A program made the position numbers and the translations under genes. This document shows, piece after piece, positions 4,180 through 44,000 of a stretch of DNA of 64,000 nucleotides. Numbering within the stretch: the stretch's first letter is position 1; each line of letters begins with the position of its first letter. Below the pieces are notes generated by a model, which made no database searches, was not told where the DNA came from, and was given only the letters and a program-made list of their open reading frames with translations. The DNA is from Stegostoma tigrinum (Eukaryota), in assembly GCF_030684315.1 (NCBI RefSeq), contig NC_081370.1, positions 34,428,728-34,492,727 of the forward strand. The letters are read 5' to 3'.

Positions 4180-4503
4180 TGTCTCCACCATTAGTAAAAT
4201 ACATAAAAAGTGAACCAGAACTCCCAGAGGTAGGAAAAGAAGCAACCATCATATGTCATGCATATGGCTTCTTTCCAAAGGAAACGTTGTTCATGTGGTT
4301 CAGAAATAATGAGAGAGCTGATGACGCAGGAATCACTTTTACTGAACCTCAGAAAGATGAGCAAACTGGCTTCTTCTACTGTGAAAGTCGATGGAGATTA
4401 TTAATTAAGCCAGAATATCACCAGATGGAATTCAAAGTTGAGGTTCTACATTTCCCAACTTCTCACAAGCCTTCAAGATCTAGTTTCGTCCTTCATCTTG
4501 GAG
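4180..4503 (+). CDS. Gene A (5'-partial), third-last coding exon: C1-set Ig domain, paralogous to gene B exon 8
   Basis: Acceptor ttactacag|TG, donor GGAG|gtatga; 324 nt, phase 1-1. VSPPLVKYIKSEPELPEVGKEATIICHAYGFFPK..WFRN..EFKVEVLH: B-strand Cys, FFP turn and C-strand Trp present; F-strand Cys replaced by Val. Confidence 0.88.
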
Positions 4504-6699
4504 GTATGAATTTAGTGCATATATTTTTCTGTACTAAACTTATACAAGACTACATATCAGCTACAGACTTTTATATTTAGGAATGTGTGTGAAGTTTTAC
4601 CACACTTCAATACTCCAAACATAAATTTGTTGTATCGTATTGAAATTTTCCAGAGACAGTGGTATGTTCCTGCTTACAAAGTACAAAAACAGTGGCAATT
4701 CTTCCTGCTTTCCAGTCACATTTTTAAAGTTTGATAGCATTTAACCTGAACTGGCGTCCTAATTGGATTATCAAGCTATTTTAAAATTCTAATATTTATT
4801 TTCAGTTGTCGACGTTTTTTTTATGAGTCAATGCACTTGCCAAAAAGTCAAAAGAATTGTAATAATTAGCATTTGGTATAGGAATAGGCATCCAGTAATA
4901 TCCTGCTATGACCTGACTGCATATAGAGTGATGATGATAGGTTTGACTCTGATCCTAGATGCTGAGGTGGTTCAGATGATTAAGTAAAAACAGAGAATTT
5001 CATTTCTTGATATTCTCAGGAAGAATCTTCAGTGATACACCAGAGCAGGCAAATGTGATCTGTAAGACGAATCTTCATCACTGCTCGTTATGTTGCATCA
5101 GCTATTGGTAGAACTTCTGCCACCATCCTTTCTCCTGGTAGAGACACACATGAGGACTGTTTGGTCCAATGTGGCAGTGAGAAACCACTTGACAGTTTAA
5201 TGAGAAGAGGCTTTGTTTTAAACGAAATAAAGTTTATTGTTTGACAACAAGATTATCCTCATTGCAGTGTCTATGTGGAAGACCTAAAGGTGGTAGGTCT
5301 TGCTCATTTAAGATCCTCAGTTGTTCTCCCACATGTCCATATGACATTGCAGCAGGTGGTATTTAATTCACTCCAGGATAATCATCCTTACAGATCCTTA
5401 CAACTTTATACGATGCTGACAACCATTTTTTTTTCTACCCATTATTAATATTTATATATTTGTCTACATAATTAGTTTGTAACTGCTGTATCTCCACAAG
5501 TTTCTTTACACATTCGGGCAGTCTGGAGTCTCACTATTCTCTGAACACACATTATCTTCAGGCTTGGAAGATAGATAGAATTTTGAGTTGAAATTTGTTG
5601 ACTTTTATTCTGTTTCTGACAATGTGAAGGCTGAAAATCCCTTCAGATGAGAGTAATCTTTTAAAAAATCTTTGGATTTCCTTTTGTAGAAGTATGGTTT
5701 CCTACTAAAACAGGCACTTGCTCCATTGCAAATCTGTAGGACCTTTAAACTCCCAAATTTCCTCAATGAGAACAACTGTGGAAATAGACACTTTCATTTT
5801 TGCAGTATCCTGGATCCTAGAACCGGGCAATTTTTTCCTGACTATGCTTTGAATCATTGGACATTATAGTTTCTTCTTGGTGGTGGTTTCCAAGATGGTT
5901 GTATGCACCACCTCTTCAATCTGTCAGCAGATTTTACTTCTCAATCTATGCCAAAGTATATAACACCATTTCTATTCTTCGTTTGGAACTATAGTATTGG
6001 GGAAAACAACAGGCTCAATTCCTTCAACATACCATTTGCTGGTTTGCTGCTTATTGGATGTGATCTCTATTCCTGGGAAGATCAGGAAATGAAACCTTCT
6101 GTTTGAACTTGGTCTTCTGAACCACCAGGACATCTGACATCTGACATCTGACTCAAATCTGTCGTCATCACAGTTTATTGACACCCCCTGTGTTTACTGA
6201 TAAATCTTTAACGAAAACAGAATTTGCTGTAAAATCTCAGCAGGTCTGGCAGCATCTGTGGAGGGAAATCAGAGCTAACATTTTGGATTTGGTGACGCTT
6301 TTTCAGAATTGACGAATCTTGAATTGACATAATTCAATGAGCTCAAATGGGCAATGCTGCTTAGTGGCTTTATGCTTGTTTCCATTTGTTCTGTAAACAT
6401 TGCCAATTCTTGTAATCTAAACTCCATTTGTAGTAAGGAAAATCTTTTGTGCCATATGATAATTTAGCCAATAACTGGAGGCTTCCATTTTTCTTACTGT
6501 GTGAAACAGATTTTTTATGCTGACAAAGCTAATCTCGATTTACTGAAAAGGTTTCTAATAGTAGCTATAAATAAGGAAGTGGAAGGGAGAGAGGAACATA
6601 GTGAAAATTTGACTGGAAGGAAAGTGTTACTGAGTGCACTAATGGAGCTGCAAGTTTCTCAATGCCCAGATCATGATGTGTGTCATGCTTTTGCCTTTA

Positions 6700-8170
6700 G
6701 GAAAGGTGGTTACTGAGGTAGTAGATTAATTTGTGTTAGCTTTTCAAAATTCACTAAATTCTGGCAAGAAGCAAATGTAACCTGCCTATTCAAGACAGGA
6801 AGAAGGCAGAAGCTGGGTATCTACAGTCCAGTTAGCATGATGTCTGTCGTGGGGTGTTAGAATTAATCCATAAGGTGCCTGGATACTGGGGAAAAAGTCA
6901 AGGTTATTAGGAAGATGTAGCATTCTTTTTGTGAAAGGAAGAAAATGAATTTTAACCAATTTCTTGGACTTGGTTTGAATGAGTAGTATGTGCACAGTGT
7001 ATACCCATTGACATATTATAGTTGGATTTCCAGAAGGTATTTGACCAGGTGAGCAAATGCAGCTAAATTATCATATGGCACAAAAAGAAATAGGAAAGTT
7101 TGTTTTGAAGAGAACATGAAGAGATCACAGACTAACATAGGTTCAGTGAGTGGAAAATATTTTTTGCAGATGCAGTAGACTCTGGAAATATATGAAATTG
7201 ATCACTTTGGCAGGAAAAATAAAAATGGGTTCAACGGTCTGAATTCAAAGATAGCTGTCAAAATGGCCACCTACACGTAAAACTTAATGATATCAGTTAC
7301 TGGTGATAGATGTCCCCAAGTCAAAATGTATCTGCATGCATAGCTGATATCACTAAATCCTGTACGCTATAAGAGATGGCGTGTAATGTGGAAAATGTGA
7401 AGTTGCTCACTTTGGTGAAAAGAATAAAAAAAGCACAATATTACTTAGATGAAGAATGATTGAAGAATTCCAAGGTGCAAAGTGATTTGGATACATTGGT
7501 TTGTGTCACAAAAAATTTAGTATGTAGGTGAAGCAGATGATCATTAAGGCTAACGGAATGCTAACCTTTATTACAAGAGGAATTGAATATGAAAGTGAGG
7601 ATATTATGCTTCATTCTGTAGGACATGAGTGAGACCACATCTCACATACTGTGTGACGTTTTGGCCTCCTTGTTTAAGGAAGAATGTAAATGTTTGGAAG
7701 GATTCAGAAGCAATTTACAAGATTTATACCTAGAATTAGTTGTACTAAGAGGAAATGTTGAATGGATTGGGCTTGTTTTCACTGGAGTTGAAATGAATGA
7801 GGGGTGACTTGTATAAATCCTGAACGACCTTGATTTCAGCAGGTGTGGAAAGAATATTTTGTCTTGCGCATGAGTACAGAATTAGGGAACACTATTTCAA
7901 AAAAAAAACTCGTGTTGCCTATTAGGAAATGGAGGAGGTGAATTTTTTTCACTGAGGACTGACAGACTTTGGAATTCTGCTTAAATGATGGCAGAGGCAG
8001 CTCATTGAATACTCTTAAGCAAGGATAAATATGTTTTTGTTAGACAAAGCAATAAAATACTATCACGAGTAATTGGGAAATGTGGAATATGAAACACAAA
8101 CTGATCAACCATGATCTTACTGAATGGCAAAGAACATCCAAGGGGGCCAAACGGCCTCTACTTCTCCCAG
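6700..8170 (+). mobile_element. Degraded CR1 LINE
   Basis: Decayed RT motifs (ttggatttccagaaggtatttgac) and a CR1 3' tail near 8100-8165. Confidence 0.6.
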
Positions 8171-8784
8171 TTGAATGCGTGTAAGGTTTATCGGTGGCTA
8201 AGGCGAATAAAATAAAATGAATGCAAGTGAACCAAAGTGAAAATTTAGTAAGGAAGGATGTTGCATCAAAGATTCAATATCTACAATCAGTTTGGCTGGA
8301 ATTAAAAAGCAGCAAAGGGAGTAAAACATTCTGAGAGTTTCTTTTTTACAGACTGTAGTGGTATTATTGGGCATGGTGTAAAAATCAGAAGTTTAAAAAT
8401 ACATGTAACATGTATAATTGTAGTTTAACAGTCAGCTTCAGTTTATGCATAGTCATACAGCACGGAAGCTGACCCTTCAGTGTAACTCATCCATGCTGAC
8501 CAAGTTTCCCAATCTAAACTAGTCTCACTTGCCTGTGTATGGCCTATATTCCTCTCAACCTTTCCTAATCATGTTCCTGTTCAAATGTCTTTTAAATGTT
8601 GTGACTGTACCAATGTCTACTGCCTCCCCTGGCAATTTATTCCACGTAAGATCCACCCTCTGTGTGAAAAAAGGTGCCACTCAGGTTTCTTTTAGATTTA
8701 ACCCCTCTCACCTCAAAAATACACTCCCTACTTTTGAACTCTCCCACCCTAGGGAAAAACTAAATCAACATTAATACTATGGAA

Positions 8785-9015
8785 CACAAATAGAAGTTGC
8801 TGAAAAAGCTCAGAAGGTGTGGCAGCACCTGTGAAGGAAAATCAGTTAACATTTCAAGTCCAGTGACCCTTCCTCAGTTCTGAGGCAGGGTTATTGGACC
8901 TGAAATGTTAACTCTGATTTTTCTTCACAGATGCGACCAGACCTGCTGAGCTCTTCCAGCAACTTCTATTTTCCTTCCTGATTTACAGCATCTATAGTTC
9001 TTTTGGTTTTTATTT
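8785..9015. mobile_element. Fold-back mini element of a second PLE family
   Basis: Inverted arms agaagttgctgaaaaagctcag.. / ..ctgagctcttccagcaacttct around degenerate hammerhead cores. Confidence 0.65.
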
Positions 9016-9019
9016 GATG

Positions 9020-11330
9020 GTATAGAGGTTGAAATGCTTCAGTGTGTATGAGATGAGTTTCTGGAGCAGTACATTGAGGAGCCAAGTCTAAATCAGGCTA
9101 TTTTGAACCACCAAATGTTTGATCACAGATGTATATTCCTCTAAGGAACAAACACTCAAAAGGAAATGTAAATCAAACATGGTTAATGAAAAAAGTTAAA
9201 GATTGCATTAAAACAGAAGAAGTGGCTTACATAGAATCCAGGTAAAGTGGCAGTTCTGAGGATTGGGAGCAATTTTGAACTCCACAAAGGTCCCAGAAAC
9301 TGGTTTAAGAACACAAAAAATAAAAATGGAGAGAGGAACATAAAGCAGGACCATGAAAACATTTTTGGGTTGTAAAAGGGAAAGGACAAGTATGACAAGT
9401 ATGGACCCATTACAGCAGGGAGAACAGGAGAATTTATAGTTTTTTTAAAAAAATGACAAAGAAATTAAGTTGTTATTTTGTGGCTATCTTCATGGGAGAA
9501 GATACGGAAAATCTCTCAAATACTAGATGACTTGGAACTTGTGCATCTGAGGAACTAAATGAAATTAGTGTTATTAAAAGGAGAACCAGTAGATGTAATG
9601 TATTTTGGATTTTCAGGAAATGTTTGATTTAGTTTCCACAAAGGAGTCTAGTAATTGAATTACAGCAGAGAGATTGATGGGAAATGTACGAGTATAAATT
9701 GAGAACTGATTAATGGGGAGAAAATGGAGAGAACTGGCAGGAGTATGCATCAGTCCGAATTGCAGTGAAGTGAACCAGGAGGATTGTGCAGCAAAGTCAC
9801 TGTGAAGCAGACTGGGAGGAGTTTGCAGTAAATCAGCACAACTGAAGCGAAGGAGCCCATGCTTTCAAGACAGTGTCAGAGAATGAGGAGTCAGCATGAA
9901 GAGCCATGAAAGTAGGTGACTGTGTGAGAAGAGGAGTAACAGTGAAAGATATAAAAACCAGTGTCAGAGACATCTGTTAACTTATTTCTTCCTTTAACAT
10001 GCAAAATGTGATATTACAGGAAAACAATTAGGTGATTGGTGGGTAGTCCCTCCATGTCTTTTGGTGAAATTAATTTCATTCAGGAGACATTAATGCAGCT
10101 GAAGAATATAGTTAAGAAATTCATCTTTTAAAAATATTTCACAGACTCATTAATTAATTGAATATAATAGAAGTGATGGGGCAGGTGGTGGCTGGCAGCT
10201 TTGGGAACTGGTGGACACAGGTACATCTGTGGTGCATCATATCTGCACAAGTGTTGGTTGCTTGAGGAACTTAAGCCAAGAGTTAATAAGCTGGACTCTG
10301 AACTGTGGACACAGACACATCAAAGATGAAGAGAGATACTGGACACTCTTTCAAGAGAAAGTCACACCCTTTAAATTAATGACATCAAATATGTTTGTGG
10401 TCTGCAGCAGGAGTGTGTGACTGAGAGCGTGGCATGTATTGGATCCACAATTTAGTTTTGGAGTAGCCTCAACCATTCACCTTATCAAATAGGGTATGAA
10501 GTTGCTCTTGGTATAGACAGGGTCACAGACTTTAGGGAGTATGAGAAAACTAACCGCACACCATGTTCATGAGTGGCAGTTAAGTTGATTTTTTTGAGGG
10601 GGGGTGCTCATTGTGAGTTGCTTGATGGAGAAAAGAGAAATGAGGTAATAGAAATTGCATAGTTTAGGTAATGGCACTGTTCTCCTGCGACAAGGACAGT
10701 TCCAAAAGCTGAGTCCTCTACCTGGTGTCATATTCAGGACATCTTTTCTGGACTGGAAAGGAACTTGGATTAGGAGGGGAAGGATCGAATTGTTGTGGTA
10801 CACGTATGCTTTAATGCCTTAAGTAGAACTAGGAAAAGAGGCTTTGCTGAGGGGATTTTGAGCACTTCAGGGCTAAATTGAACACAATCACAAAGGCAGT
10901 AATTCTCAGATTAATGTCTGAGCCAGATGCAAGTGGATAAAAGATAGTTAAGTTTAAAGAGGTAAATGTATGGTTCAAAGATTGACTTGGGAGAAATGAG
11001 TTCTGGGGGACTGCAGAAGAAGTTTGTTGGGATGGGTTTCATCTCAACTATGTTGGGACCAGTATCCTGGAAAATTGTATAATTAATGTTGTAGATAGGG
11101 TTTTAAACTAATTAGCACAAGGAGGAGTGTTCAGTTGAAGGGAAGTTTTTAAAACAAAAATCAAAAGAAATGTGAAAGCTGAAGTGCAGGGTATTGAAGA
11201 GGTGAGCAATAATCCAAATGTGATAAGAATGTGCAAGGAGGTGATTTCTAGGGAAGGTACCAGTGCAGTAATGAGTAGTGATATGGGTACAATAGATCTT
11301 GTGGAATCAGCTTGGATGTGGGATACAAAA
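9020..11330 (+). mobile_element. Heavily degraded CR1 fragments, including 5'/ORF1-like parts
   Basis: Decayed CR1 motifs (gtagatgtaatgtattttggattttcagg; gttgtggtacacgta); no intact ORF. Confidence 0.45.
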
Positions 11331-11364
11331 GCCTGATGAACAATTTCTTGTTGTTTCCAAACAG

Positions 11365-11676
11365 GAATTCCAATAGTTTCTGACATCGTTGCAGAGCCAG
11401 AAATTTCATCCTATGGAAAACGTCTTGTTCTTAAATGCCATGTAAAAAATTTTTCAGGAAATGTATCCTCTGCCAGATGGCTAATGAATAACAAGTATGT
11501 CTCTAGTGGAGTCACAACCACAGAGCCTCAGAAGGAAGAAAGTGGCTATTATCAGTTATTTTCCAGCATGGAGTTAACGCCAACCGCTTTGGATTATAAT
11601 AAGGAAGTTGTATTCGAACTGATGCATAAAGCCTCACCCAATCCCATTCAAAAGCAGCTGTGTTTGAAGCTTCCAG
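11365..11676 (+). CDS. Gene A, second-last coding exon: C1-set Ig domain, paralogous to gene B exon 9
   Basis: Acceptor ttccaaacag|GA, donor CCAG|gtatgt; 312 nt, phase 1-1. GIPIVSDIVAEPEISSYGKRLVLKCHVKNFSG..ARW..SGVTTTEP..EVVFELMH; F-strand Cys replaced by Phe. Confidence 0.88.
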
Positions 11677-12548
11677 GTATGTTTAAAATTGTGCAAAATC
11701 CTAATTACTGTAGAACTAGAGCTTTGAATAGTTTAAGAAACAAGAACAGAATTGAATTTATCATGTTTTTTTTAAGAAAAAAAATGTCAATTATGAAAGT
11801 GCCAATCTGCTCCTGGATACCATTTTCAGTCCCTTTCTATTTGTTATAAATGGGCCCTGATGGGTGAATGTACCAATTTTTCGGTTTCAGAAGACTGGAA
11901 CCTGCCAAATGATAAAATATTACTCTTTGCCATTCTAAATTTAGTGAGAATAACCGATCAAAGCATGATCCCAGATGTGGAACTTGAAGCCATTACTGAG
12001 AGCTCACCCAGATGTCAGGACTATATGCTATTAAAACCGCCTTTTTGGGTGCATAGTTGTTTACTATGCAGAAGGTGCTTTAGGCCTCACTGAAAGATGA
12101 GCTACCTTTTGTAAATCCGTGTTGACTGCCCATGCTTTTCTGACAGTTCAGTAATTTCATGCTGTATTCTGAACTGTTAAGCAGGAAGAATAATATTTGC
12201 CTTCCAGTCAACTTGGAAGAATTCACAATTTTTTGAAGCTTTTTAATGTGTCCACTGATTCTTCTAGTATTCTGGAGTGCAAATGATCTGGGAAATCTAT
12301 TTTATGGCCTTGCTAAAAATGTTATCCCTTTGTATGTTCATCTTGGTTGTCAATCCCAAACATTTCTTTGTTCAACCTTTGATATCTCATGATTCCTACT
12401 GTTCCATAAGAAGTAGTAACTGAATTTGCTAAATTGAACAATTGAATTTGCTGAAGCTATGTCAAGAACACTTACTGTAACATTGAGACAAACTATCACT
12501 GCAGATAATGTGCACACTCATAACTTGTACGTTCTGTTCTGTTTTAAG

Positions 12549-12862
12549 GTTTTCCTCCTACTCTGTCGGAAATCAAATGTAACCCAATGAAACCAGAGAA
12601 AAACAAAGTAACAACTTTCACCGTTTCACTGACTGATTATGCACCTCAAGAAATTGAAATTAGGTGGTTTAAAGAAAAGGAACCCTTCATGGGTCAGGCG
12701 GCTCATACTAAGCCTGAAATTGCTGAAAATGGTCTCTTCTCATCTCTAACAAGTATAGAATTTACACCAGTAGAATCTGATAATGGGATAGGAATCAGAT
12801 GTGAGGTTTATCACCCAGAAACACAAGAATTTAAGGAAAAAAATTTGTGTCTGGCATTCTGA
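12549..12862 (+). CDS. Gene A, terminal coding exon: C1-set Ig domain ending in TGA, paralogous to gene B exon 10
   Basis: Acceptor gttttaag|GT. GFPPTLSEIKCNPMKPEK..FTVSLTDYAPQEIEIRWFK..NGLFSSLTSIEFTP..IRCEVYH..CLAF*; B-strand Cys replaced by Val. Confidence 0.88.
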
Positions 12863-14968: not shown

Positions 14969-15055
14969 GCCTCCCATGAAGCGCTGGTGTTATGTCCCGC
15001 TTTCTATTTATCTGTTTAGGTTTCCTTGGGTTGGTGATGTCATTTTCTGTTCTTT

Positions 15056-20642: not shown

Positions 20643-22885
20643 CTGCTCTCGATACAATAGCTAGACCATGTTATTGCAGATGCTAAATTTTGTTAAATAC
20701 ACAACTACATGAATCTTAGTTTCTCATGTATTTGATCATGTCTTTGCTGGTGTTAAGACTCCAATCTAATCAGTGGTGAATTGCTTTTAATAATCATTTA
20801 GATTTTTCTTTAACATACCTTACTTGAGTCACTTCATAAAATTATAGAGAAATCTAACAAATTTTCAGACTAACTGCCAAAGCTAATTGGAGACATAATT
20901 AAATATTTCCCATAGCTTCCAAGGTATTGGGACTTGAAGCTAAAACAGAAATTGCTGGAGAAAATCAAGACCGGCAGCATCTGTGGGGAGAGAGAGTTAA
21001 TGGTTTTGAGTCCAGTGACCCTTCAGAAGGGACTTGATGTTGGCAACCACAAGGTGTTCGCTATGGTCCAATCTAAAAATTATGATCACAAAAGTTGGTA
21101 CAGTGACAGATATTTTTAACGTTCTTTCCTTCCCTATAGTTTGCCTTTTTTGAAACTGTGAAAACTTTATATTTTTGTATCTCTGGCAATGGAATCCGTC
21201 TTTTTCCAGTGAATGTGTGTCAGAAAGTAACTCCCCCCGAATAGCGAAAACTGGATAATCTATCTTGTGAGATTTTACCTGTAAGTATTTGTAAAATGTT
21301 TTGTTCTAGCCAGCCAAAAAATACATTAGCAACATTAACTATGTTTCCCTTGGCATGCTTACAAACTGACATTGTTTGTTTCTACTGTATATGGATGGTG
21401 GTTGATACAAAATTGTACTGTTTGTCTTTTTGTATTACAAGTTGTAATTAAATGTATCCGAATGAGGAAATGTAAATGTTCAAATGGTATGTTCTATAAA
21501 TACAGTAAATAATGAAATCTAAATAAAATACATATCACTGAGAAATACTGTTTCCTTCCTTATTGACATACACAGAAACACTTGTACCGAAGGTGACTCC
21601 AGAGTCTTGAAATATATTTCCAGACACACAACATTGAGTTAAGAAGTACATGAGAGGGAGCCTTTGGCACAGTACATTGTTTAATTTATATAAATATCTG
21701 ATATTATTTAAACGTTGTATTTATGATATGCAATGTTTTACTTAATACACTTCTAATTTACTCTGAACCCCAGAAATAAGGCAGACAAAACTGAATCTAA
21801 TGTTACAATTTTGTTTTATTTAATGTTCTACTTTGGGTTTGTATCTGCTGTGTTTTTTGTGCTATTACCAATTTCCACATGTTAACAGTTTTTAAGCTTT
21901 GGTGGAAGTTTGAGGCATTCAGACATACAAATTGATTCAAGTTAAACCTTTTAAAGCTATATCAGCAAATATATAATTCTTCACATCTCTGATTTAAACT
22001 TTTTTCCTCCCCAGCCCGACCCCGTACCTTATCTGCTCTTCATGCTAGACATTTTTTTCTCTCGCCGAAAAGACCCAGCGGCAGATTCCACATGTACACT
22101 GGCAACACATCTCTACATCACAACCTCTCTTAAACCCCTTACTGTGTCTATATTGGCTCACTTGGCCTAGAAAAATTGTTCTTCACGTTTATTATTGGGG
22201 AAAACCAGTGCCACTACCTTTGACCCCCACCCCCCCGAAGGAGAATACTAGTTGCCGCTGATTCCATGCCTTCTCTAACAACTGTTGCACATTGAACCAG
22301 CCTGATCCCAGTTTCTGTGCTTTATTTTGTCTAGGTTTGAGCTTCTGACCTCATTTCCTAATCATTAGCCATGTACTTCTGCCTCCACTCGAGTTTCTTT
22401 GAGTTGGTATCACCTCCAGATTTGGCTATTCCAATGTACACATAGCTAACCTACTGAAATATGTAAATGCACATAATCAATTAAAACCTTTAGACTCATT
22501 AACGACTTAACAGCATCTTAGGTTTGTTTCGTACATCCTCATTAATGGGTGTGAACCTTTGATCTTTTACTTATAAATTCAGTGCCTGATACTAACATCT
22601 GAAGGAGTGAAGCTCCGAAAGCTTGTGTCGAATAAACTTGTAGGACTATAAGCTCGTGTCGTGTGATTTCTGAACTTTTTAAGATTTGAAAATAAATAGC
22701 AAAATACTTCTTTCTAAAATTAATTTATTGTTTTCTCAATGCACTGGAACTGTATTAAGTAAAATTTTGCATTTCATAAATACAATGCTTCAATAATGTA
22801 CAGATATCTATATAAATTAAATAACTTTAAACGCCTACGCCCCCCAGCGGTGGAAATTGGACAGTCGGCTCCGCCCGAGCCCGGT

Positions 22886-22897
22886 GAAAGTGAAACT
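22886..22897 (+). promoter_or_regulatory. ISRE / IRF-binding element GAAAGTGAAACT
   Basis: Exact match to GAAANNGAAACT (reverse strand AGTTTCACTTTC), about 95 nt upstream of the ATG. Confidence 0.7.
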
Positions 22898-22990
22898 CGG
22901 GCCGAGCGGAAGCTGCCCGTTGGTGTGCTGTCGGGTTTACAACGAGAGAAGCGCCGGATCGGGTCACGCACACACACACAGAGAGGGGCC

Positions 22991-23063
22991 ATGGGCCCGG
23001 TGAGGAGCTCGCTGCCGCCTCTGGTCCCGGTGTTAGCACTGCTGACCCTGGTACCGCACTCAG
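22991..23063 (+). CDS. Gene B exon 1: signal peptide [24 protein letters not shown]
   Basis: Strong Kozak context gggccATGg, hydrophobic core, phase-1 donor TCAG|gtaaag, located in a CpG-rich island. Confidence 0.85.
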
Positions 23064-29000: not shown

Positions 29001-32000
29001 GTAGACAGGATTGTGAAGAAGGCGTATGGTATGCTTGCCTTTATTGGTCAGTGCTTTGAATATAGGAGTTGTGGGGTTATGTTGTGCCTTTATGGAACAT
29101 CGGTTAGGTCACTTTTGGAATACTGCATGCAATTCTGGTCTCCCTCCGACATGAAGGATGTTGTGAAACTTGAAAGGGTTCAGAAAAGGTTTAGAAGGTT
29201 GTTGTCAGGGTTGGAGAGTTTGAGCTATAGGCAGAAGCTAAAGGGGCTGGGGCTATTTTCCCTGGAGCATCAGAGGCTGAGGGGTGACCTTTGTAGAGGT
29301 TTGTAAAATCATGAGGGGAGTGGATATGGTGAATAGCCAAGGATTTTTCCCCGCAGTGGTGGGGTGGGGGGGGGGGGGGGGGGTGTCCAAAAGCAGAGGG
29401 CACAGGTTTAAGGTGAGAGGAGAAAGATTGAAAAGGGGCCTAAGGGGCGACTTGTTTACACAGAGGGTAGTGCTTGTATGGAATGAGATGCCAGAGAAAG
29501 TGGTGGAGGCTGCTACAATAAATAACATTTAAAAGACTTCTGGATAGGTATATGAAAAGGAAGGGTTTAGAGGGATATGGGCCAAATGCTGGCAAGTGGG
29601 ACTAGTTTAATTTAGGATATCTAGTTGGCATGGACGCTTTGGAGTGAAGGGTCTGCTTCCATGCTGTACAACCCTATGATTCGAAGTAATGTTCCTATGT
29701 TATTTTCTTCAACGGCAACACCTTGGCTACTGGAACTGCCTTTCAGAACAACCAGCACCTTTTTGTTTGTAGTACAAATAGTTTGAAATTGAAAATTTGT
29801 TTTGAAAGTTCAGGATAACAAGCTTCAGTAACATTATCTTTGTTGAAATTCCATACAACAGCTTGCTGTTAGGATAGTTGACTGAAATCTTGGTTAAAGA
29901 GCAATGCTTTGAGCCTCATCATAAGGAAAAAAGAGACGTGAAGAAGTTTAGGAAGGTGTTCCAGAGCTTGAAGTCTTTCCACATTAAGACATCCCTGTTG
30001 GTTGTGGGAGTGATTAAAATTACAGATGAACAAGAGTACAAGAATTGAAGTATCGAGATCTCACAGGGTTGAAAGTTCAGAGAAGGTTATAGAGATAAGG
30101 ACGCCATGGTGAGATCTGAAACTAAAGAGATCTTGCCAGACCAAGCACACAGGTTAAACTAAATAAAGGAAAAACAGGCTAGGCATGAGATGGGTTATGG
30201 GTAGCAAAATTTGGAATGTATTGAGCAAATGAGGGAGGAGAAGAAGGGATTATGTTGGTAGTGTTCGATGAAACATAGGATAAGCCACTGTCAAGCTGTT
30301 TAACTTAGTTATTTTCATGGTGTACATTCTTTCTTTGTAAGTCAAAATACATTTTAGAAAGTCTTGTTGGATGGGCACTAACAAAACAGTTTTATTTTCT
30401 TTTTAAATCTCAGAAAGCAAGGTGACATTGAAAGACAGTCCAAGTTTTGTGCAAGTAGTACGTAATGAAAATGGTCTTCTAGAATGCGAAATTGCTGAAT
30501 TCAGCGGATCCAAAATGACTCTGCAGAACTCGAGCGTTTTATGGTCTTTCACTAATGGTGCTGAAAAATCAAATGCCTTTGTCTACATTTCTGGAGTAAT
30601 AAGAGAGAAATGGAAAGAAGCAGAGCTATTGAGCAGCTCTATTACACATGGAAACATGTCGCTGTTGCTAAAAGATGTTGCTTATAAACATGCTGGACAA
30701 TACCAATGCGAAGTTTACATTCCACCAAATGATAAAGCCACTAAGACAGTAACACTTGAAGTAATAGGTAAAAAGATTTATTTGTTGTATTGTAAATCAT
30801 ACCACATTTCAGTGCATTACAATGCCTTCAGTTTAATATATTTTGACAATATGTCTTTATTGCTTTGGAAATGTAATCTTACCAAGAAAATTTTCACATG
30901 CCGTGTCTTACCACTGTCTTCAAACATAAAGTACTGTGAATGCTGGAAGTACTTAGCAGGTCAGGCAAAATCTTAGGACAAAAATAGTATTAACGTGTCA
31001 GATTGATTATCAGTCATCAAAAGTTACTTTTAAAATAACAAGTGGTTCGCTCATAGTGTGTAATACTTTTTGATTATATCCACGTACTCATTAATGATCC
31101 GGTAATGCCTGTTTTTACAAAGTTGCTATCTGAACTATCAATTCTCAACCAGATATTGAAAGTTTATTTGTATGATGCATTGTAAATTAACATTTAATGA
31201 CTGAACCAAAAGTAGCAAATTCTGTAAAGTGTTTGCATTTGTGGGGAGGGAAAATATATTTTGGTGAAGATGCCTACACAATCTGTGATTAAGAATGTAG
31301 CATTTAAAATGAAAGTTTAGAAAGCATTTTTTTTTTGCAGCTTTCATCCCAGTGGAGGTGAAAGGGAATTTTAGAGATTTTCCTTCTCCTTCACTTGCAT
31401 GCCAGGGCCATCTGTTCCTTCTGGCATATCACAACTGGTACAAGAGTAGGAATTAATAACAAATTCTTTTCACTTTTCAACTAGTCATGCAGTATTTAAG
31501 TCCCACTGCATATTTTTGAAATAGTTCCTTTATTAACTTGGGGTGTTGGTTTATTGTCTAATCTGAATGATGATACCTCCAATAATATTACATGGAACTT
31601 TTTGTTATGTTGAAGACATGTATCACGTCACCTTATAGTGTTCAGACTTCTAGGGGGGGAAATAAAAGGTCTTTTAGGTATTTCCAGGTGGTTAGAACCT
31701 CTCGGTTGCAGTAACATCCTTGTGAATATCTGTTTTTATAATATGGAAACCAGAAATAGGCACATTACTTAAAATGAGATCATAATCAGATTACATGATC
31801 AGGTTACTATGCAAATTTAACACACTTTTACAATTCTAAATTTCTAGAAATGCATTTCAGTGCTTGAGATGTGGCCTTTTAATGATTATCTGCAAGCCCC
31901 AAAACCTCTTTCTCCTCTATCCCACTTTGACTTTATCTAGCCTATATGTGACCCTATGTTATTATTATGCAATGTCATGCTTATCTGAATTCATTTCCTG

Positions 32001-35000: not shown

Positions 35001-38000
35001 TTCTATATCCTTTTTTGTAATAGGCTACCAGAGCTATGCATTCTGCATGCAGCCTGACCAGGTTCCTATACACATTTAACAAGTGTATCACCTCTCAAAC
35101 CAATCCCATGGTTTACCTGACACATTTAATAGTTTTGTTCCCATGCTGCTTTCATTGATTTGTTCACCTATTTCACTGGATCCCTTTGTACTTTCACTGC
35201 ATTTAAAAGAAATAAACTACAGGTGACATTTCTGTATTTTTGTTCAATTGAGTTCATTACGTTTATTGATGTCAGGTAACAATCAGCTGTTCAGGTTTTC
35301 AGATTTGATGTTCTGTTGCATTTTTTTTAGTGTCAGCTAAGCTTACTGTTTTATATCACTTGCAAATTTTGATTTGAAGTTCCTTATTCCTCAGCCTAAA
35401 GCATCAGTTTTCTTGCAAATGCATTCACAAAATGTGAGTGTGCAGGCTGTTTACTGCCCATCCCTTTAAAATGGTGGTGAGCTGCCTTCTGAAATCCCTG
35501 CAGTCCATTTGTTGTAGGTGGCCCCATAATGACTTTAGGAAGGGAGGACCAAGCTTTTGAATCAGTGACATTGAAGTAATGCAAATTATGAGTAACATTG
35601 ATCCTATGTTGATTTTTGTGCAAATGCATTTCCATTAGAAAAGACCTGTTTTCCGAGTATTACAACTGGATTTAAAACAATGAGATGTGCATGTGTAAAA
35701 ATTAGAACCTTGTTTTTGTGCATATTAATTGGATTGCTCAGAACTGAGGTAAGTATTTCTCTATTATACTTCACACAATAATACAGTATTACACTAGTGG
35801 AATGATTAAAATAGCTAACTGTAAGAAATATGTAACTTTTCTTTTGCAGAAGCAGAAATTCATTTGTCCAAAGCTTCAATAATCGGAAGCATTATTGGGA
35901 GCATCATTACTTCTGTTCTTGTACTCGGACTAGGAATTTATTTCTATATGCGATTCTATTATAAAGGTAAAGCCACATTCTGGGTCTTGTGCGCTACTTC
36001 AGACACTTTGGGGGATAAACTGGAGCAAATTGACTCAAAGGAAATAAAATGTGAGGCTGGATGAACACAGCAGGCCAAGCAGCATCTCAGGAGCACAAAA
36101 GCTGACGTTTCGGGCCTGGACCCTTCATCAGAGAGGGGGATGGGGGGAGGGAACTGGAATAAATAGGGAGAGAGGGGGAGGCGGACCGAAGATGGAGAGT
36201 AAAGAAGATAGGTGGCGAGGGTGTAGGTGGGGAGGTAGGGAGGGGATAGGTCAGTCCAGGGAAGACGGACAGGTCAAGGAGGTGGGATGAGGTTAGTAGG
36301 TAGCTGGGGGTGCGGCTTGGGGTGGGAGGAAGGGATGGGTGAGAGGAAGAACCGGTTAGGGAGGCGGAGACAGGTTGGATTGGTTTTGGGATGCAGTGGG
36401 TGGGGGGGAAGAGCTGGGCTGGTTGTGTGGTGCAGTGGGGGGAGGGGATGAACTGGGCTGGTTTAGGGATGCAGTGGGGGAAGGGGAGATTTTGAAACTG
36501 GTGAAGTCCACATTGATACCATATGGCTGCAGGGTTCCCAGGCGGAATATGAGTTGCTGTTCCTGCAACCTTCGGGTGGCATCATTGTGGCAGTGCAGGA
36601 GGCCCATGATGGACATGTCATCAAGAGAATGGGAGGGGGAGTGGAAATGGTTTGCGACTGGGAGGTGCAGTTGTTTGTTGCGAACTGAGCGGAGGTGTTC
36701 TGCAAAGCGGTCCCCAAGCCTCCGCTTGGTTTCCCCAATGTAGAGAAAGCCGCACCGGGTACAGTGGATGCAGTATATCACATTGGCAGATGTGCAGGTG
36801 AACCTCTGCTTAATGTGGAATGTCATCTTGGGGCCTGGGATGGGGGTGAGGGAGGAGGTGTGGGGACAAGTGTAGCATTTCCTGCGGTTGCAGGGGAAGG
36901 TGCCGGGTGTGGTGGGGTTGGAGGGCAGTGTGGAGCGAACAAGGGAGTCACGGAGAGAGTGGTCTCTCCGGAAAACAGACAGGGGTGGGGATGGAAAAAT
37001 GTCTTGGGTGGTGGGGTCGGATTGTAAATGGCGGAAGTGTCGGAGGATAATGCGTTGTATCCGGAGGTTGGTAGGGTGGTGTGTGAGAACGAGGGGGATC
37101 CTCTTGGGGCGGTTGTGGCGGGGGCGGGGTGTGAGGGATGTGTCGCGGGAAATGCGGGAGACGCGGTCAAGGGCGTTCTCAATCACCGTGGGGGGGAAGT
37201 TGCGGTCCTTAAAGAACTTGGACATCTGGGATGTGCGGGAGTGGAATGTCTTATCGTGGGAGCAGATGCGGCGGAGGCGGAGGAATTGGGAATAGGGGAT
37301 GGAATTTTTGCAGGAGGGTGGGTGGGAGGAGGTGTATTCTAGGTAGCTGTGGGAGTCGGTGGGCTTGAAATGGACATCAGTTACAAGCCCACTTCCTACA
37401 GACTAAGGGGGTGGCCATGGGCACCCGCATGGGCCCCAGAATCTGGACTCCATTTTCTCCCCTTTGGTCCAGGAACTCCCCACCTATGTCCGTGACACCA
37501 CCCACGCCCTCCACCTCCTCCAGGACTTCCAATTCCCTGGCCCCCAACACCTCATATTCACCATGGACGTCCAGTCCCTGTACACCTGCATTCCGCATGG
37601 AGATGGCCTCAAGGCCCTCCGCTTCTTCCTGTCCCGCAGGCCCGACCAGGCCCCCTCCACCGACACTCTCATCCGCCTAGCGGAACTCGTCCTCACACTC
37701 AACAACTTCTCTTTTGACTCCTCCCACTTCCTACAGACTAAGGGGGTGGCCATGGGCACCCGCATGGGCCCCAGCTATGCCTGCCTCTTTGTAGGTTACG
37801 TGGAACAGTCCATCTTCCGCACCTACACAGGCCCCAAACCCCACCTCTTCCTCCGGTACATTGATGACTGTATTGGCGCCGCCTCTTGCTCCCCAGAGGA
37901 GCTCGAACAGTTCATCCACTTCACCAACACCTTCCACCCCAACCTTCAGTTCACCTGGGCCATCTCCAGCACATCCCTCACCTTCCTGGACCTCTCAGTC

Positions 38001-41000
38001 TCCATCTCAGGCAACCAGCTTGTAACTGATGTCCATTTCAAGCCCACCGACTCCCACAGCTACCTAGAATACACCTCCTCCCACCCACCCTCCTGCAAAA
38101 ATTCCATCCCCTATTCCCAATTCCTCCGCCTCCGCCGCATCTGCTCCCACGATAAGACATTCCACTCCCGCACATCCCAGATGTCCAAGTTCTTTAAGGA
38201 CCGCAACTTCCCCCCCACGGTGATTGAGAACGCCCTTGACCGCGTCTCCCGCATTTCCCGCGACACATCCCTCACACCCCGCCCCCGCCACAACCGCCCC
38301 AAGAGGATCCCCCTCGTTCTCACACACCACCCTACCAACCTCCGGATACAACGCATTATCCTCCGACACTTCCGCCATTTACAATCCGACCCCACCACCC
38401 AAGACATTTTTCCATCCCCACCCCTGTCTGTTTTCCGGAGAGACCACTCTCTCCGTGACTCCCTTGTTCGCTCCACACTGCCCTCCAACCCCACCACACC
38501 CGGCACCTTCCCCTGCAACCGCAGGAAATGCTACACTTGTCCCCACACCTCCTCCCTCACCCCCATCCCAGGCCCCAAGATGACATTCCACATTAAGCAG
38601 AGGTTCACCTGCACATCTGCCAATGTGATATACTGCATCCACTGTACCCGGTGCGGCTTTCTCTACATTGGGGAAACCAAGCGGAGGCTTGGGGACCGCT
38701 TTGCAGAACACCTCCGCTCAGTTCGCAACAAACAACTGCACCTCCCAGTCGCAAACCATTTCCACTCCCCCTCCCATTCTCTTGATGACATGTCCATCAT
38801 GGGCCTCCTGCACTGCCACAATGATGCCACCCGAAGGTTGCAGGAACAGCAACTCATATTCCGCCTGGGAACCCTGCAGCCATATGGTATCAATGTGGAC
38901 TTCACCAGTTTCAAAATCTCCCCTTCCCCCACTGCATCCCTAAACCAGCCCAGTTCATCCCCTCCCCCCACTGCACCACACAACCAGCCCAGCTCTTCCC
39001 CCCCCACCCACTGCATCCCAAAACCAATCCAACCTGTCTCCGCCTCCCTAACCGGTTCTTCCTCTCACCCATCCCTTCCTCCCACCCCAAGCCGCACCCC
39101 CAGCTACCTACTAACCTCATCCCACCTCCTTGACCTGTCCGTCTTCCCTGGACTGACCTATCCCCTCCCTACCTCCCCACCTACACCCTCTCCACCTATC
39201 TTCTTTACTCTCCATCTTCGGTCCGCCTCCCCCTCTCTCCCTATTTATTCCAGTTCCCTCCCCCCATCCCCCTCTCTGATGAAGGGTCCAGGCCCGAAAC
39301 GTCAGCTTTTGTGCTCCTGAGATGCTGCTTGGCCTGCTGTGTTCATCTAGCCTCACATTTTATTATCTTGGAATCTCCAGCATCTGCAGTTCCCATTATC
39401 TCTGACTCAAAGGAAGGTTGTTTATGGTTTGGGAGGCAGCATTTTGAAAGCTGCTGTTGCAGCAAAGTCATAGATTTAGCCAATGAAATCTCAAACTTGC
39501 TACCCTTTCATTTTTCTGTTTTCACATTATGATAGTCGTTATTAAATGAAAATGATTAGTCTGCCAACAAAGAGTGTTTAATTAAAATGCAAGCTAAAAA
39601 TGAAATGTGTAATTTGGATAGTTTTCTATGTCCTCTGCTTGGTATATTTGTTTTACCTTTCTTAACACCTCATCTAGCTTTTTCTTTGCTGGTACAGAGT
39701 GCTTCTGTTACTCCACCCTAACATTTGCGCTGTCTTACTATACTTTGATCTTTGATCTTGGATCTTGTACTGATGTTGCTGATAGCAATTGCCCAATGCA
39801 TTCTGGAGTTTACAGTCAATGGATTCTCGAATGTTTAAAAGGGAAGGGAAGTTCAAAAGTCCTAATTGCTTGTTTGAAATAATCTACTTTTTAAGAGGAA
39901 GTGAGGATCTTGCTTTCAGTTAGTTAATAATTTTTCCAAAATATAGTTTTTTTTTCTGCTAATGTGAATGGTATCAGATGAGCTGTACTGGTAACATGAG
40001 TTATGTTTTAGAGTTTGGTCCACATTTACTCCATTACAAAAGTAGAAAGCACAACTTCAAGTTTACTTGCAGATCCTTTGACATGGCAAAACCATTCTGT
40101 ATCCTTGAGTGCAGATACGTGATTATCTTTGTCATTTCTCATTTGCTCATTTTTAAAAACAAGTAGTTGTGTTTTATTTTGCAATTTCTTTTCTGTGCCA
40201 TTGTGTGAATTCCATCTCTAGTTCCCTTTTCTGTTGCTCTATTATCCTCCTCATCTGTAAACTTCTAAATATTATTTTGAACTGCAGCATTGTTGCCCAT
40301 GACTCTGTTGAAATTGCACATTTTCAGAGAACATTTTTTAATCGTTTTTTTTGAAATTCTTCTTTGCACTTTGCCTATTTATTTTTGTGGTCTCCTGTTT
40401 ACTGTACAACTACCTTTCCGTAAACTCTAAGTTGCCATAGAAGATGTTTTGCATGCACTTGGAGCAGTGAAATTGTAACTGTGTTCCTCATAAAAATGCC
40501 ATTTCTCACTCTCAGAAAAACACTCCACCCTCCAATAATCACTTCATTCAAACACATGCCACACATTGTGTGAATCTAAGTATGCAAGCAGTTCATTCCA
40601 GTGTTAGTGTAAAGAACAGTTTAGTTAATGGTTAGTAGTTACAAAAGTCTCTGTTCTGACTGAATAATTCCATAAGAGAGTTACTGGTGTTGTAATTTTT
40701 AAGGTGGTTTTTGGAAAACTTCAGTGAACCTTAAATTTGAGAATTAAAACAAATAACAATCAATTTTAGAATCAATTGAGGCAAGTTTTAAAACTGGTAA
40801 GAATTTTTAGGAAGTGCAAAAGATCACATGAAAAAAATCCTACTTGACATTGTTTTTCAATTCCTAGTTGCGCCATATGTGTCAGAAATTCAAAAACCTG
40901 TGAAAGTTATACACCGAGAACCTGCAGAACTTACTTGCCAAGTGTCTGGATTTCAACCTAGTGTTATTACCATTGCCTGGTATTTGAAGAGATTGAAAGA

Positions 41001-44000
41001 TGCTGAAATGAAGTTGATTGCTGAATGGCAGGAAGACAACGTATTCCATTTCCCTTTGAGCAAGGCCAAGAAAATAGGAAAGGCTGAAAAAAAGAATGAA
41101 ACTGATGATTGGAAAGTCAGGGCAGGCAGGATCCAGAAAAGTGGTGATGGAACTTTCAGCATTTCCAGCGTTCTCGAGATTTATCCTGACATTTTTATGG
41201 ACAATGAAGCAGAAATCACATGTAAGGTGATACACCCATCTAACAGTGAAGCCATTTGTAAAAAGATCAAACTCCATGTTGATGGAAGTAAGTTTCTTTT
41301 AATGATTCAATCAAAAGACATAATTCTGTGAAGTAGAATATATGGACCCTAATGTTCTAATTGATCACAATTACAGTGTCCACTGCCATCATGGCAGATG
41401 ATGCAAGTGAGCTTCTAAGAGTGTTGTTTTGTATCAGTCTGTCCTGTCTCTGCCTCCATTCTACCGTATTTGCAATATCATATTCCTATTGCTGGCGTAT
41501 AACTAGAGATGAGGCTGTGACAAAAAATTTTTCTTTTTAAAAAAAAACAGATATTTTTCCCTTTTGTATGAAAGACATCCTGGAATTGTGGAAAAATAGG
41601 GCTGGAATTTAAATCTCTAACTCTTTCCCCAAACAGCTGTTAGCATTTGAAATAAAAGAGATGCTCTAGTGGTACTAATTCAGATAAATAAATACAATCT
41701 AGTGGCTGTAACTGAGATCTAGGATGACCTAGATTGGGACCTAAATATTGAAGTAGCTAGTGAGATGGTTTGTGCATTGGTTTTAATTTTTGAAAACTCA
41801 CTGGATTCAGGGAAAATTCCTTCACATTTGTAAATAGCAAATGTAACTCCCCCAGATGGGCATTTGATGTTTAGGAAGAACACAAAGGTAGGAAAGGAGT
41901 GACTGTTGACAAACATTAAGATTGATAAGTTCCCAGGGCCAGACCAAATTTATCCGAGGTTGCTCCAGGAAGCGAGAAAGGAGGTTGCTAAGCCGCTGGC
42001 GAAGATCTTTGCTTCCTCACTCTCCACGGAAGTCGTACCGGAAGATTGGAGGGAGGCAAATGTTGTTCCTCTTTTCAAGAAAGGGAATAGGGAAATCTCT
42101 GGAAATTACAGACCAGTCAGTCTTATGTCTGTGGTCAGCAAGGTTTTGGAAAGAATTGTGAGGGATAGGATTTATGACTATTTGGAAAAGCATAGTGTGA
42201 TTAAAGGGAGTCAGCATGGCTTTGTGAGGGGCAGGTCATGCCTTCCAAATCTTATTGAGTTCTTTGAGGAAGTCACGAGACAGGCTGACGAGGGTCAAGC
42301 AGTGGATGTGGTGTACATGGACTTCAGCAAAGCATTTGATAAGGTTCCCCACAGCAGGCTCATTCATAAAGTCAGGAGGTATGGGATACAGGGTGATTTG
42401 GCTGTCTGGATTCAGAATTGGTTGGCTGACAGGAGGCAGAGAGTGCTTGTAGATGGTAAGTATTCTGCCTGGAAGTCAGTGCTGAGTGGTGTCCCACAGG
42501 GCTCCGTTCTTGGGCCTCTGCTGTTTGTAGTGTTTATAAATGACTTGGATGAGGAGGTTGAGGGGTGGGTTAGTATGTTTGCTGATTACACAAAGGTTGG
42601 AGGTACCGTTGATAGTATCGAGGGCTATTGCAGGATTCAGCGAGACATTGACAGAATGCAGAGCTGGGCTGAGAAATGGCAGATGGAGTTCACTCTGGAT
42701 AAATGCGAAGTGATGCATTTTGGAAGGTCAAACTTAAATGCTGAATATAGGATTAAAGGCAGGATTCTCGGCAGTGTGGAGGAACAGCGGGATCTTGGTG
42801 TTCAAGTGCATAGCTCCCTCAAAGTTGCCACCCAGGTGGATAAGGTTGTTAAGAAAGCATATGGTGTTTTGGCTTTCATTAACAGGGGGATCGAGTTTAA
42901 GAGCCGCGAGGTTATGCTGCAGCTCTACAAAACCCTGGTGAGACCACACTTGGAATATTGTGTCCGGTTCTGGTTGCCTTATTATAGGACAGATGTGGAG
43001 GCTTTGGAGAGGGTGCAAAGGAGGTTTACCAGGATGCTGCCTGGGCTGGAGGGCTTGTCTTACAAGGAGAGGTTGACTGAGCTTGGACTTTTCTCTCTGG
43101 AGAGAAGGAGGAAGAGAGGTGACCTGATCAAGATGTACAAGGTAATGAGAGGCATGGATAGAGTCGATAGCCAGAGACTTTTCCCCAGGGCAGGATTGAC
43201 TGCCACGAGGGGTCATAGTTTTAAGGTGTTAGAAGGAAGGTATAAAGGAGATGTCAGAGGGAGGTTCTTCACCCAGAGAGTTGTGAGCGCCTGGAATAGT
43301 TTACCAGTGGCAGTCGTGGAAGCAGAGCCATTAGTGACATTTAAGCGACTGCTGGACATGCACATGGACAGCAGTGAATTGAGGGGAATGTAGGTTAGGT
43401 TATTTTATTTTTGGATGAGGATTATTGCACGGCACAACATCGTGGGCCGAAGGGCCTGTACTGTGCTGTACGTTTCTATGTTCTATGTTCTATAGATTAG
43501 AAATAATCTTAGCACAATACATATGAATGACCTAAATTCAGAAAACCAGGATATGGGTACAGATGAGGAACAATGAAGGTAAGAGGTTGCTTGTGGGTAT
43601 TGCGTAGACGTGCACTAACAGTAACCACGTGGTAGGACAGGGTTTCAAGAAAGAACTAATGGAAGGTTGTCAAAACAGTACAGCAATTATTGTGTAGGGA
43701 TTTTAACCTCCTATATAGACTGGAAAAAAATCAAGTGAGAAAATGTAGTCTATAGGAGGAATTCATTGAACGTCTTCAGGATAGTTTCTTCAACCAGTTA
43801 TGTTATGACACCAGTCCGACAGTAGGCTATGCTGCACCTGGTTTTGACCAATGAGATAGGATTAATTATTGATCTCAAAGTGAAAGTTCCCTTGGGTAGC
43901 AGTGGGCAGAATATGATTGTATTTATCATACAGTTTAAGGGAGAGTTTAAACAAGGGCACTTCTGTGGGTATCAATGCAGAGCCTGTGAAAGTGAACTAA

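Follow-up and report, generated by a model that had tools for sequence, protein, structure and literature searches.

The terminal immunoglobulin (Ig) exons that recur in the zebra shark DNA analysed here (the window, 64,000 nucleotides) belong to two genes, A and B, that are tandem paralogues of the B7-H6 (NCR3LG1) family, likely generated by duplication of a whole gene before the split of sharks and bony vertebrates. The two genes have a common architecture, in which a leader, a V domain, a C1 domain and a transmembrane (TM) segment are followed by a tail of six C1-set domains (c1–c6). The observations as a whole are, in our judgement, probably best explained by a B7-H6 tandem pair of ancient origin, whose six-C1 tail would serve as a cytosolic scaffold. 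The preliminary description of the window had recognised three terminal domains as an old module; our results add to its age as well as to its size, since it comprises six domains and the whole gene.

Gene A corresponds to LOC125459419 (model P0049, 1054 aa), and the three exons present in the window are its final three (Table 1), which encode P0049 residues 740–1054, letter for letter. The leader, V, C1 and TM parts that the preliminary description had expected upstream are present in P0049 and are followed by c1–c3, the source for all of these being the database model. Domain 4 of gene A lacks the canonical F-strand Cys, and domain 6 matches its whale-shark orthologue at 88%. Gene B, the tandem paralogue, corresponds to LOC125459500 (model P0006; 22991–58240), in which all ten of its exons are found exactly; the GC content around its exon 1 is 0.65 (22900–23099). 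Because a donor-like GTATGT lies 3′ of the gene B stop codon, we considered whether this stop could be a sequencing error, and rejected the idea since all eight B orthologues share the end column. A tblastn search of the window with 13 family proteins and eight position profiles revealed no further family exons (best new E value, 0.087). Thus, the extra V domain of the whale-shark model P0048 is absent there.

Table 1. Exons of genes A and B located in the window.
Feature	Position	Strand	Remarks
Gene A tail C1 domain 4	4180..4503	+	324 nt; AG/GT, phase 1-1; Pfam C1-set; exact in P0049 from residue 740; partner of B 49900
Gene A tail C1 domain 5	11365..11676	+	312 nt; AG/GT, phase 1-1; Pfam C1-set; exact in P0049 from residue 848; partner of B 56070
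Gene A tail C1 domain 6, last coding exon	12549..12862	+	after AG; stop TGA; Pfam C1-set; exact in P0049, residue 952 to end; partner of B 57933
Gene B exon 1, GC-rich 5′ region and leader	22835..23063	+	ATG 22991; donor after 23063
Gene B V-set	30414..30767	+	FG loop without the B7-H6 Thr
Gene B extracellular C1	32777..33103	+	family-wide extra D-strand Cys; two more Cys typical of elasmobranch B
Gene B transmembrane	35850..35966	+	117 nt; phase 1-1; in-frame skippable
Gene B tail C1 domain 1	40868..41287	+	
Gene B tail C1 domain 2	47327..47689	+	best-conserved tail position
Gene B tail C1 domain 3	48440..48748	+	
Gene B tail C1 domain 4	49900..50226	+	327 nt; AG/GT, phase 1-1; Pfam C1-set; partner of A 4180
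Gene B tail C1 domain 5	56070..56381	+	312 nt; AG/GT, phase 1-1; Pfam C1-set; partner of A 11365
Gene B tail C1 domain 6	57933..58240	+	after AG; stop TAG; Pfam C1-set; partner of A 12549

The pairing of the last three exons of A with those of B had been proposed from short motifs. The coordinates proved exact, the quoted motifs are present in the pairwise alignments, and the two stop codons share one alignment column. As had been judged by eye, identity is low while the order of positions is the same: 35 of 107 residues were identical between A-4180 and B-49900 (33%; z 16.3), 27 of 103 between A-11365 and B-56070 (26%; z 11.2) and 29 of 101 between A-12549 and B-57933 (29%; z 11.8), each z being based on 200 shuffles. 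Over the whole length, A and B orthologues showed 29–31% identity. As a best match within the window, only the first pair held; B-49900 outscored the positional partners of both A-11365 (z 12.4) and A-12549 (z 15.4). Since two of the three pairings are second-best, position-specificity has to be evaluated by comparison with other species. The claim of a kept end point likewise stood for A versus B but not for the family, in which paralogue C, the coelacanth, one lungfish gene, the reedfish and Xenopus have one or two extra tail domains and five shark gene-A models end after domain 4.

In a tree of 98 tail domains, the position label changed seven times, as compared with a minimum of six and a mean of 66.9 after shuffling (none of 200 shuffles was as low); the domains do not cluster by gene. 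Held-out profiles placed 70 of 70, 87 of 91 and 14 of 14 domains at their positions. Separation was poorest for positions 4 and 6, neither of which is monophyletic in the 98-domain tree; in the profile-stage tree, c6 had a support of 45 and monophyly of c4 was not rejected (p-AU 0.60), and B-only profiles misplaced four of the 13 A c6 domains. The complete c1–c6 order was found in 13 of the best 150 representatives, and 42 of 43 further proteins with at least two tail domains had them in non-decreasing order, counts that lean towards order because the matches were ranked by one A+B profile. Named carriers of the ordered tail include chimaera, coelacanth, lungfish, reedfish, caecilian, newts, Xenopus, and NCR3LG1 of alligator and snake, the reptile proteins keeping the order with a gap. 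In the ESM Atlas, we found generic C1 clusters only. The tree and the held-out profiles, by sorting the domains according to position, support the notion of an old, position-specific Ig tail of a gene family. The constant domains of antibodies, T-cell receptors and MHC are of the C1 set, whose normal place of action is outside the cell. An array of six such domains behind a TM segment, in a fixed order in cartilaginous and bony vertebrates, suggests that the C1 set acquired position-specific, probably cytosolic, roles very early.

We regard it as most improbable that the tail is an inert spacer or relic without position-specific function, whose symmetrical exons are simply seldom rearranged. 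Many relatives have indeed lost, skipped or multiplied tail domains (c2 is absent from the alligator tail, c1 is present in at least seven copies in Heterodontus P0068 and c4 in four copies in Heptranchias P0087, besides the truncated shark A models), and the human protein has a Gag-like tail (PMC2715080, in the part available). Such inertness is difficult to reconcile with a conservation of the tail domains that roughly equals that of the ectodomain (identities of 0.53–0.62 versus 0.64–0.67 for A-A comparisons, and of 0.26–0.36 versus 0.25–0.31 for A-B comparisons), with reading frames that are open in both paralogues and with the many tail columns that do not vary among 39 proteins.

The best PDB sequence match of gene A is human B7-H6 (E 6.7e-32), the flag that natural killer cells recognise, followed by CD276 as the next family (2.5e-17); the link to NCR3LG1, a guess in the preliminary description, was right. 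The matches to tapasin/TAPBPR and SIRP (E about 1e-10 to 1e-8, the tapasin family being at about 1e-10) were some 20 orders of magnitude weaker than that to B7-H6. An AF2 model of the nurse-shark gene A orthologue (P0050; pLDDT 84.6) superimposed on B7-H6 with a TM-score of 0.89–0.90 and an rmsd of 2.1–2.4 Å; in the whole-chain Foldseek ranking, in which multi-Ig chains with low TM-scores predominate, the B7-H6 rows are the sole informative ones. The nurse-shark deposit QTT61907.1 (980 aa), named B7H6, falls into the 90% cluster of gene A and is its orthologue with a full tail, while QTT61906.1 (1092 aa) represents a third paralogue, C, whose domains have the same order and are extended by a seventh. 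As these deposits carry the tail, the long sequences are already public as B7H6. A literature search, beyond whose reach lay the likeliest shark B7H6 sources, found no paper that, judging by its listing, describes an Ig-domain tail on B7-H6.

Gene A groups with alligator and snake NCR3LG1 (A/C/reptile-NCR3LG1 clade, SH-aLRT 97). Gene B did not join the named NCR3LG1 proteins: in the full-length tree, which was midpoint-rooted and has long-branch outgroups, it forms a separate clade with lungfish LOC122810504 and caecilian LOC115468918 (SH-aLRT 99). Its residues 42–249 match B7-H6 best (E 4.7e-18), the overall top row being an antibody chain that matches the tail. On these sequence comparisons, we file gene B as a putative sister paralogue rather than B7-H6 proper. 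We saw no named deposit for its lineage, all B matches being ‘uncharacterized’ or without a name, and none of the named chimaera matches is a B, though A and C are present.

The FG-loop Thr-Pro accounts for 44% of the contacts in the human B7-H6 complex with NKp30, according to the portion of PMC3135353 available. This motif is present in 12 of 19 A proteins (including that of the zebra shark), all seven C proteins and ten of 13 bony-vertebrate and unnamed A/C-side proteins, and in none of the 11 B proteins, all of which have the Pro without the Thr. It is missing from seven of the 19 A proteins; the way in which Thr-Pro or its Thr is absent from five A proteins of rays and Heptranchias weakens the motif as a marker. 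Because the Thr-Pro is kept, gene A is predicted, with fair confidence, to be still a ligand of shark NKp30. For gene B, we lean somewhat towards the prediction that it binds another receptor, or NKp30 in another way; as an unnamed sister lineage of B7-H6, it may be considered a candidate ligand of further receptors in the NKp30 family.

Human B7-H6 and the shark proteins are alike in their type I V-C1 ectodomain, in the FG-loop Thr-Pro (gene A) and in an odd Cys in the ectodomain C1. They differ behind the membrane, where the 454-aa human protein has a Gag-like intracytoplasmic domain (PMC2715080) whereas shark A and B have the six C1-set domains; seen in this way, the human tail has likely replaced an older module. 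Alligator and corn-snake NCR3LG1 (RefSeq) have V-C1-TM followed by tail C1 domains in the shark position order, but without c2 and, in the alligator, with a further terminal domain. UrIg2 also combines a shark V domain, non-rearranging, with many C1 domains, but its nine precede the TM segment and six of them are near-identical recent duplicates (PMC12227049, in part), whereas the A/B array follows a TM segment placed after the first C1, and its positions have been distinct from one another since ancient times. Tapasin/TAPBPR and SIRP share V-C1 or C1 modules, with weaker matches. SIRP has a second extracellular C1, which A and B do not. The fish intracellular-Ig-domain-containing proteins may be related; a literature search for this family found no paper.

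Besides the leader, there is one TM-scale hydrophobic segment, with basic residues after it, and we predict with high confidence a type I topology with the tail inside the cell. Among 35 proteins, the canonical Cys pair is present in 35 V domains, 35 ectodomain C1 domains, and 8 (c1), 34 (c2), 34 (c3), 0 (c4), 4 (c5) and 10 (c6) tail domains. Loss of the Ig disulfide in most proteins at four of the six tail positions fits a cytosolic location; retention of both Cys by c2 and c3 is unexpected for purely cytosolic domains. Glycosylation sequons numbered 83 outside (60 expected) and 151 in the tail (140 expected). A complex of two copies of P0050 tail domains 1–3, predicted without an alignment, had a score of 0.01 and a mark of 0.32, values that carry no weight in either direction.

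The array could alternatively serve mainly a secreted splice form, in which skipping of the TM exon would yield a soluble V-(C1)7 chain that acts as a B7-H6 decoy and has a body resembling Fc, extracellular pairing keeping the order. The length and phases of that exon (117 nt, 1-1), the conserved Cys pair of c2 and c3 (34 of 35), and TM-less models, namely isoform X2 of white-shark and basking-shark A (P0024, P0025), the caecilian B-type isoform X3 (P0209) and three unnamed proteins (P0061, P0070, P0099), would agree with it. We consider it unlikely, as the TM segment is present in most full-length proteins, including both nurse-shark deposits and proteins from 3.5–3.8 kb contigs, the Cys pair is mostly lost in c1, c4, c5 and c6, tail sequons are not enriched, and the TM-less models may represent prediction misses of a short exon. 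The six-domain tail is likely a cytosolic scaffold, of which each position would bind different partners. We tentatively propose, at slightly less than even chances, that the domain order is conserved because the tail tethers the ligand or gathers it into clusters, and determines how it is displayed at the surface.

The translation of gene B exon 1 coincides with the N-terminus of the gene A model over 76 identical residues, and the zebra-shark A and B leaders are identical. In a comparison that rests on database models, all five shark B leaders were nearest to an A leader of the same order (permutation, 1 of 60); by contrast, each of 21 V domains had its nearest counterpart in the same gene. 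In rays, the leaders showed no homogenisation (0.40 between genes, 0.52 within a gene). Contigs from runs X5 and X6 match 22905/22906–23063 and have other letters past the donor. DNA run X2 contained no second leader copy in its single unbranched contig (22683–23203; 21900–22457 without cover), and a contig from run X12 stops at 22864, about 30 letters into the common tract, as would be expected both at a branch point and where cover is lost. We think it probable that exon 1 has been homogenised repeatedly between A and B in sharks, which would tend to co-regulate the two genes.

A more elaborate possibility is that A and B are expressed together as the two halves of an antibody-like dimer in register, with C1 pairing on both sides of the membrane, a link through the unpaired ectodomain Cys, and exon-1 homogenisation matching their expression. 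A and B are identical in domain number and order, 34 of 35 family proteins have the extra D-strand Cys in the ectodomain C1, and shark leaders are lineage-matched; the ABED sheet is the typical dimer interface of C1 domains (PMC11926128, in part), and human B7-H6 ectodomains formed covalent dimers, ‘unwanted’ to the authors, via the odd Cys212 (PMC7409301). The same source, as far as available, has the human ectodomain mostly as a monomer, the named chimaera matches comprise A and C without a B, and the ray leaders are as stated above; we doubt that such a dimer exists. We give equally little credence to its extension to the ancestral jawed-vertebrate B7-H6, which would then have been a co-regulated two-gene dimer with gene B, paired through the ectodomain Cys and a cytosolic six-C1 rod, with repeated conversion of exon 1 and the promoter in sharks and the signalling scaffold swapped for the Gag-like domain in humans. 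Exon-1 homogenisation, if real, would itself be a clean case of concerted evolution limited to the first exon of paralogues that are otherwise 30% identical.

The three exons assigned to gene A in the preliminary description are in-frame, spliceable C1-set exons at 4180, 11365 and 12549, and all three were found exactly in the LOC125459419 database model P0049 (residues 740–1054). They showed 33%, 26% and 29% identity with the gene B exons at 49900, 56070 and 57933, respectively (z = 16.3, 11.2 and 11.8 against shuffles, values that indicate Ig-likeness only). The second pair is of equal length (312 nt each), and the stop codons of the third pair align. However, across all eight gene B domains, the best score of 11365 and of 12549 was with the exon at 49900 and not with the positional partner. 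Thus, position-specific homology is not proven by the window alone.

Gene B (LOC125459500) lies entirely within the window, all ten exons being exact in its model P0006. The part of gene A upstream of the window is known from database models alone; P0049 and its orthologues share with gene B the leader-V-C1-TM arrangement followed by six C1 domains (c1 to c6). End-to-end alignment of A and B gave 29–31% identity.

Exons of gene B in the window
Feature	Position	Strand	Match
Leader	22991-23063	+	letter-for-letter in P0006
V	from 30414	+	letter-for-letter in P0006
C1 (ectodomain)	from 32777	+	letter-for-letter in P0006
TM	from 35850	+	letter-for-letter in P0006
Six C1 tail exons	40868 to 58240	+	letter-for-letter in P0006

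In the per-domain tree that had been foreseen (98 C1 domains, 14 proteins, 7 positions), domains sorted by position, with 7 label changes against a minimum of 6; shuffled labels averaged 66.9 changes, and none of 200 shuffles was as low as 7. Supports were 99 for the ectodomain C1 and 94, 90, 92 and 81 for c1, c2, c3 and c5, with c4 and c6 not cleanly separated. A second tree (72 domains) gave 98, 97 and 45 for c3, c5 and c6, and c4 was not rejected (p-AU 0.60). Assignment was clearer with held-out profiles: non-B profiles placed 70/70 B domains correctly, B-only profiles placed 87/91 A domains (all four misses were c6), and profiles of 12 other proteins placed 14/14 domains of the two zebra-shark proteins. 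Among the best 150 representatives, which were ranked by an A+B profile and are hence biased towards kept order, 13 had the full c1–c6 order and 42 of 43 partial proteins kept a non-decreasing one. These trees and profiles uphold the earlier claim of an old, position-specific module; the family that carries it is already known.

The leader, single TM and basic residues C-terminal to it predict type I proteins with the tail in the cytosol. A secreted form produced by skipping the TM is a rival explanation, to which six TM-less database proteins (P0024, P0025, P0209, P0061, P0070 and P0099), with the ectodomain C1 joined straight to c1, lend support. Both canonical cysteines are present in V and the ectodomain C1 of all 35 proteins and retained in c2 and c3 (34/35 each); the pair is mostly gone from c1, c4, c5 and c6, where 8, 0, 4 and 10 proteins, respectively, still have it. 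Sequons exceed expectation outside (83 found, 60 expected), with no such enrichment in the tail (151 found, 140 expected). The ectodomain C1 (32777-33103 and orthologues) has an extra D-strand cysteine in 34/35 family proteins, which would suit a second rival explanation, an in-register dimer, as would the human odd-cysteine dimers described in PMC7409301. Two more cysteines, found there in 8/8 elasmobranch B proteins, possibly form an additional internal disulfide. Tail domains and ectodomain are conserved to roughly the same degree, which speaks against a third rival, an inert relic. We suppose that the outside part would be a ligand and the inside part a position-specific scaffold that anchors, clusters or traffics it through putative partners.

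The nurse-shark protein QTT61907.1, named B7H6, belongs to the 90% cluster of gene A, and the third paralogue, C (QTT61906.1), is likewise so named. Human B7-H6 was the top PDB match of gene A (E 6.7e-32), and the AF2 model of the nurse-shark A orthologue, with confident Ig domains (mean pLDDT 84.6, pTM 0.44), overlays it at TM 0.89–0.90. The FG-loop Thr-Pro, which according to PMC3135353 accounts for 44% of the contacts when human B7-H6 binds NKp30, occurs in 12/19 A, 7/7 C and 0/11 B proteins and in 10/13 bony-vertebrate and unnamed A/C-side proteins (one not parsed). The human B7-H6 tail is described in PMC2715080 as Gag-like, whereas those of zebra-shark A and B consist of six C1 domains. 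As long shark sequences are already public as B7H6, the tail may be known to specialists. Our literature search, whose reach excluded Flajnik 2012, Ohta and Flajnik 2015 and Kinlein 2021, found no account of it as judged from listings; the text and supplements of these three bear directly on its novelty.

Named carriers (20 of the best 150 representatives, with others from another listing) include chimaera, skate, coelacanth, lungfish, reedfish, caecilian, newts and Xenopus, as well as proteins of alligator and corn snake with the annotation NCR3LG1. The tail end point varies: C, coelacanth, reedfish and Xenopus extend 1–2 domains beyond c6, and five shark A models end after c4. In the full-length tree (35 proteins; midpoint-rooted, the outgroups being long-branched), lungfish LOC122810504, caecilian LOC115468918 and the unnamed P0026 fell in with B (SH-aLRT 99); A, C, coelacanth, Xenopus and reptile NCR3LG1 formed a separate clade (97). 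Gene B is a sister lineage without a name. Since lungfish and caecilian fall inside the B clade, the A/B split likely predates that of cartilaginous and bony fish, over 420 million years ago. The lungfish B-type gene adjoins an A/C-side gene in locus number; A and B likewise adjoin in Hypanus and Mustelus, and in Pristis, Heterodontus and Mobula the contigs that carry them are equally long, suggesting that the tandem pair is general among elasmobranchs. Further paralogues have at least seven c1 copies (P0068, Heterodontus), four c4 copies (P0087, Heptranchias) or a doubled V-C1 ectodomain (P0052, Amblyraja). A second, more distant group (P0073 of tree frog, P0100 of reedfish and similar; 1200–2100 aa) has a TM near residue 230–330, then many Ig domains.

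P0049 and the translation of 22835-23062 have 76 residues in common, including the whole 24-residue leader, and diverge upstream. Among 21 leaders compared, 5/5 shark B leaders were closest to an A leader of their own order; 21/21 V domains were closest to the same gene. When different genes of one order were compared, leader identity averaged 0.80 (11 pairs); for one gene compared across orders it averaged 0.47 (47 pairs). The corresponding V values were 0.25 and 0.73, and permutation gave 1 of 60. Missing or aberrant leaders (P0003, P0016, P0018, P0019, P0023 and P0048) were omitted, as were those of chimaera P0021 and unnamed P0026 and P0044. In rays, this grouping was not seen (0.40 between genes vs 0.52 within). 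As judged from protein models only, exon-1 conversion between A and B is likely. The A and B leaders differ in horn shark (0.72) and sawshark (0.76), suggesting two separate copies that undergo episodic conversion rather than one exon in common. Contigs from two runs of one study (over 21900-23740) confirmed the exon 1 end at 23063; the DNA run, with patchy cover, gave a single unbranched contig and no second copy.

At 58238-58246, the gene B stop TAG runs straight into a donor-like GTATGT, whose phase is shifted by one base relative to the other exons; it may mark an intron in the 3′ UTR or the remnant of a seventh tail domain. The c4–c5 intron of gene B contains a 69-bp tandem repeat (52536-54060; 22.1 copies, 100% identity; 593-codon open frame), either a minisatellite of recent origin or an artefact of assembly. 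Between and within the genes lie long open frames that resemble retroelements and, by eye, encode something like reverse transcriptase (14980-17553, 36000-39400, 41903-43390 and 60800-63200); they may be LINE and Penelope-like elements.
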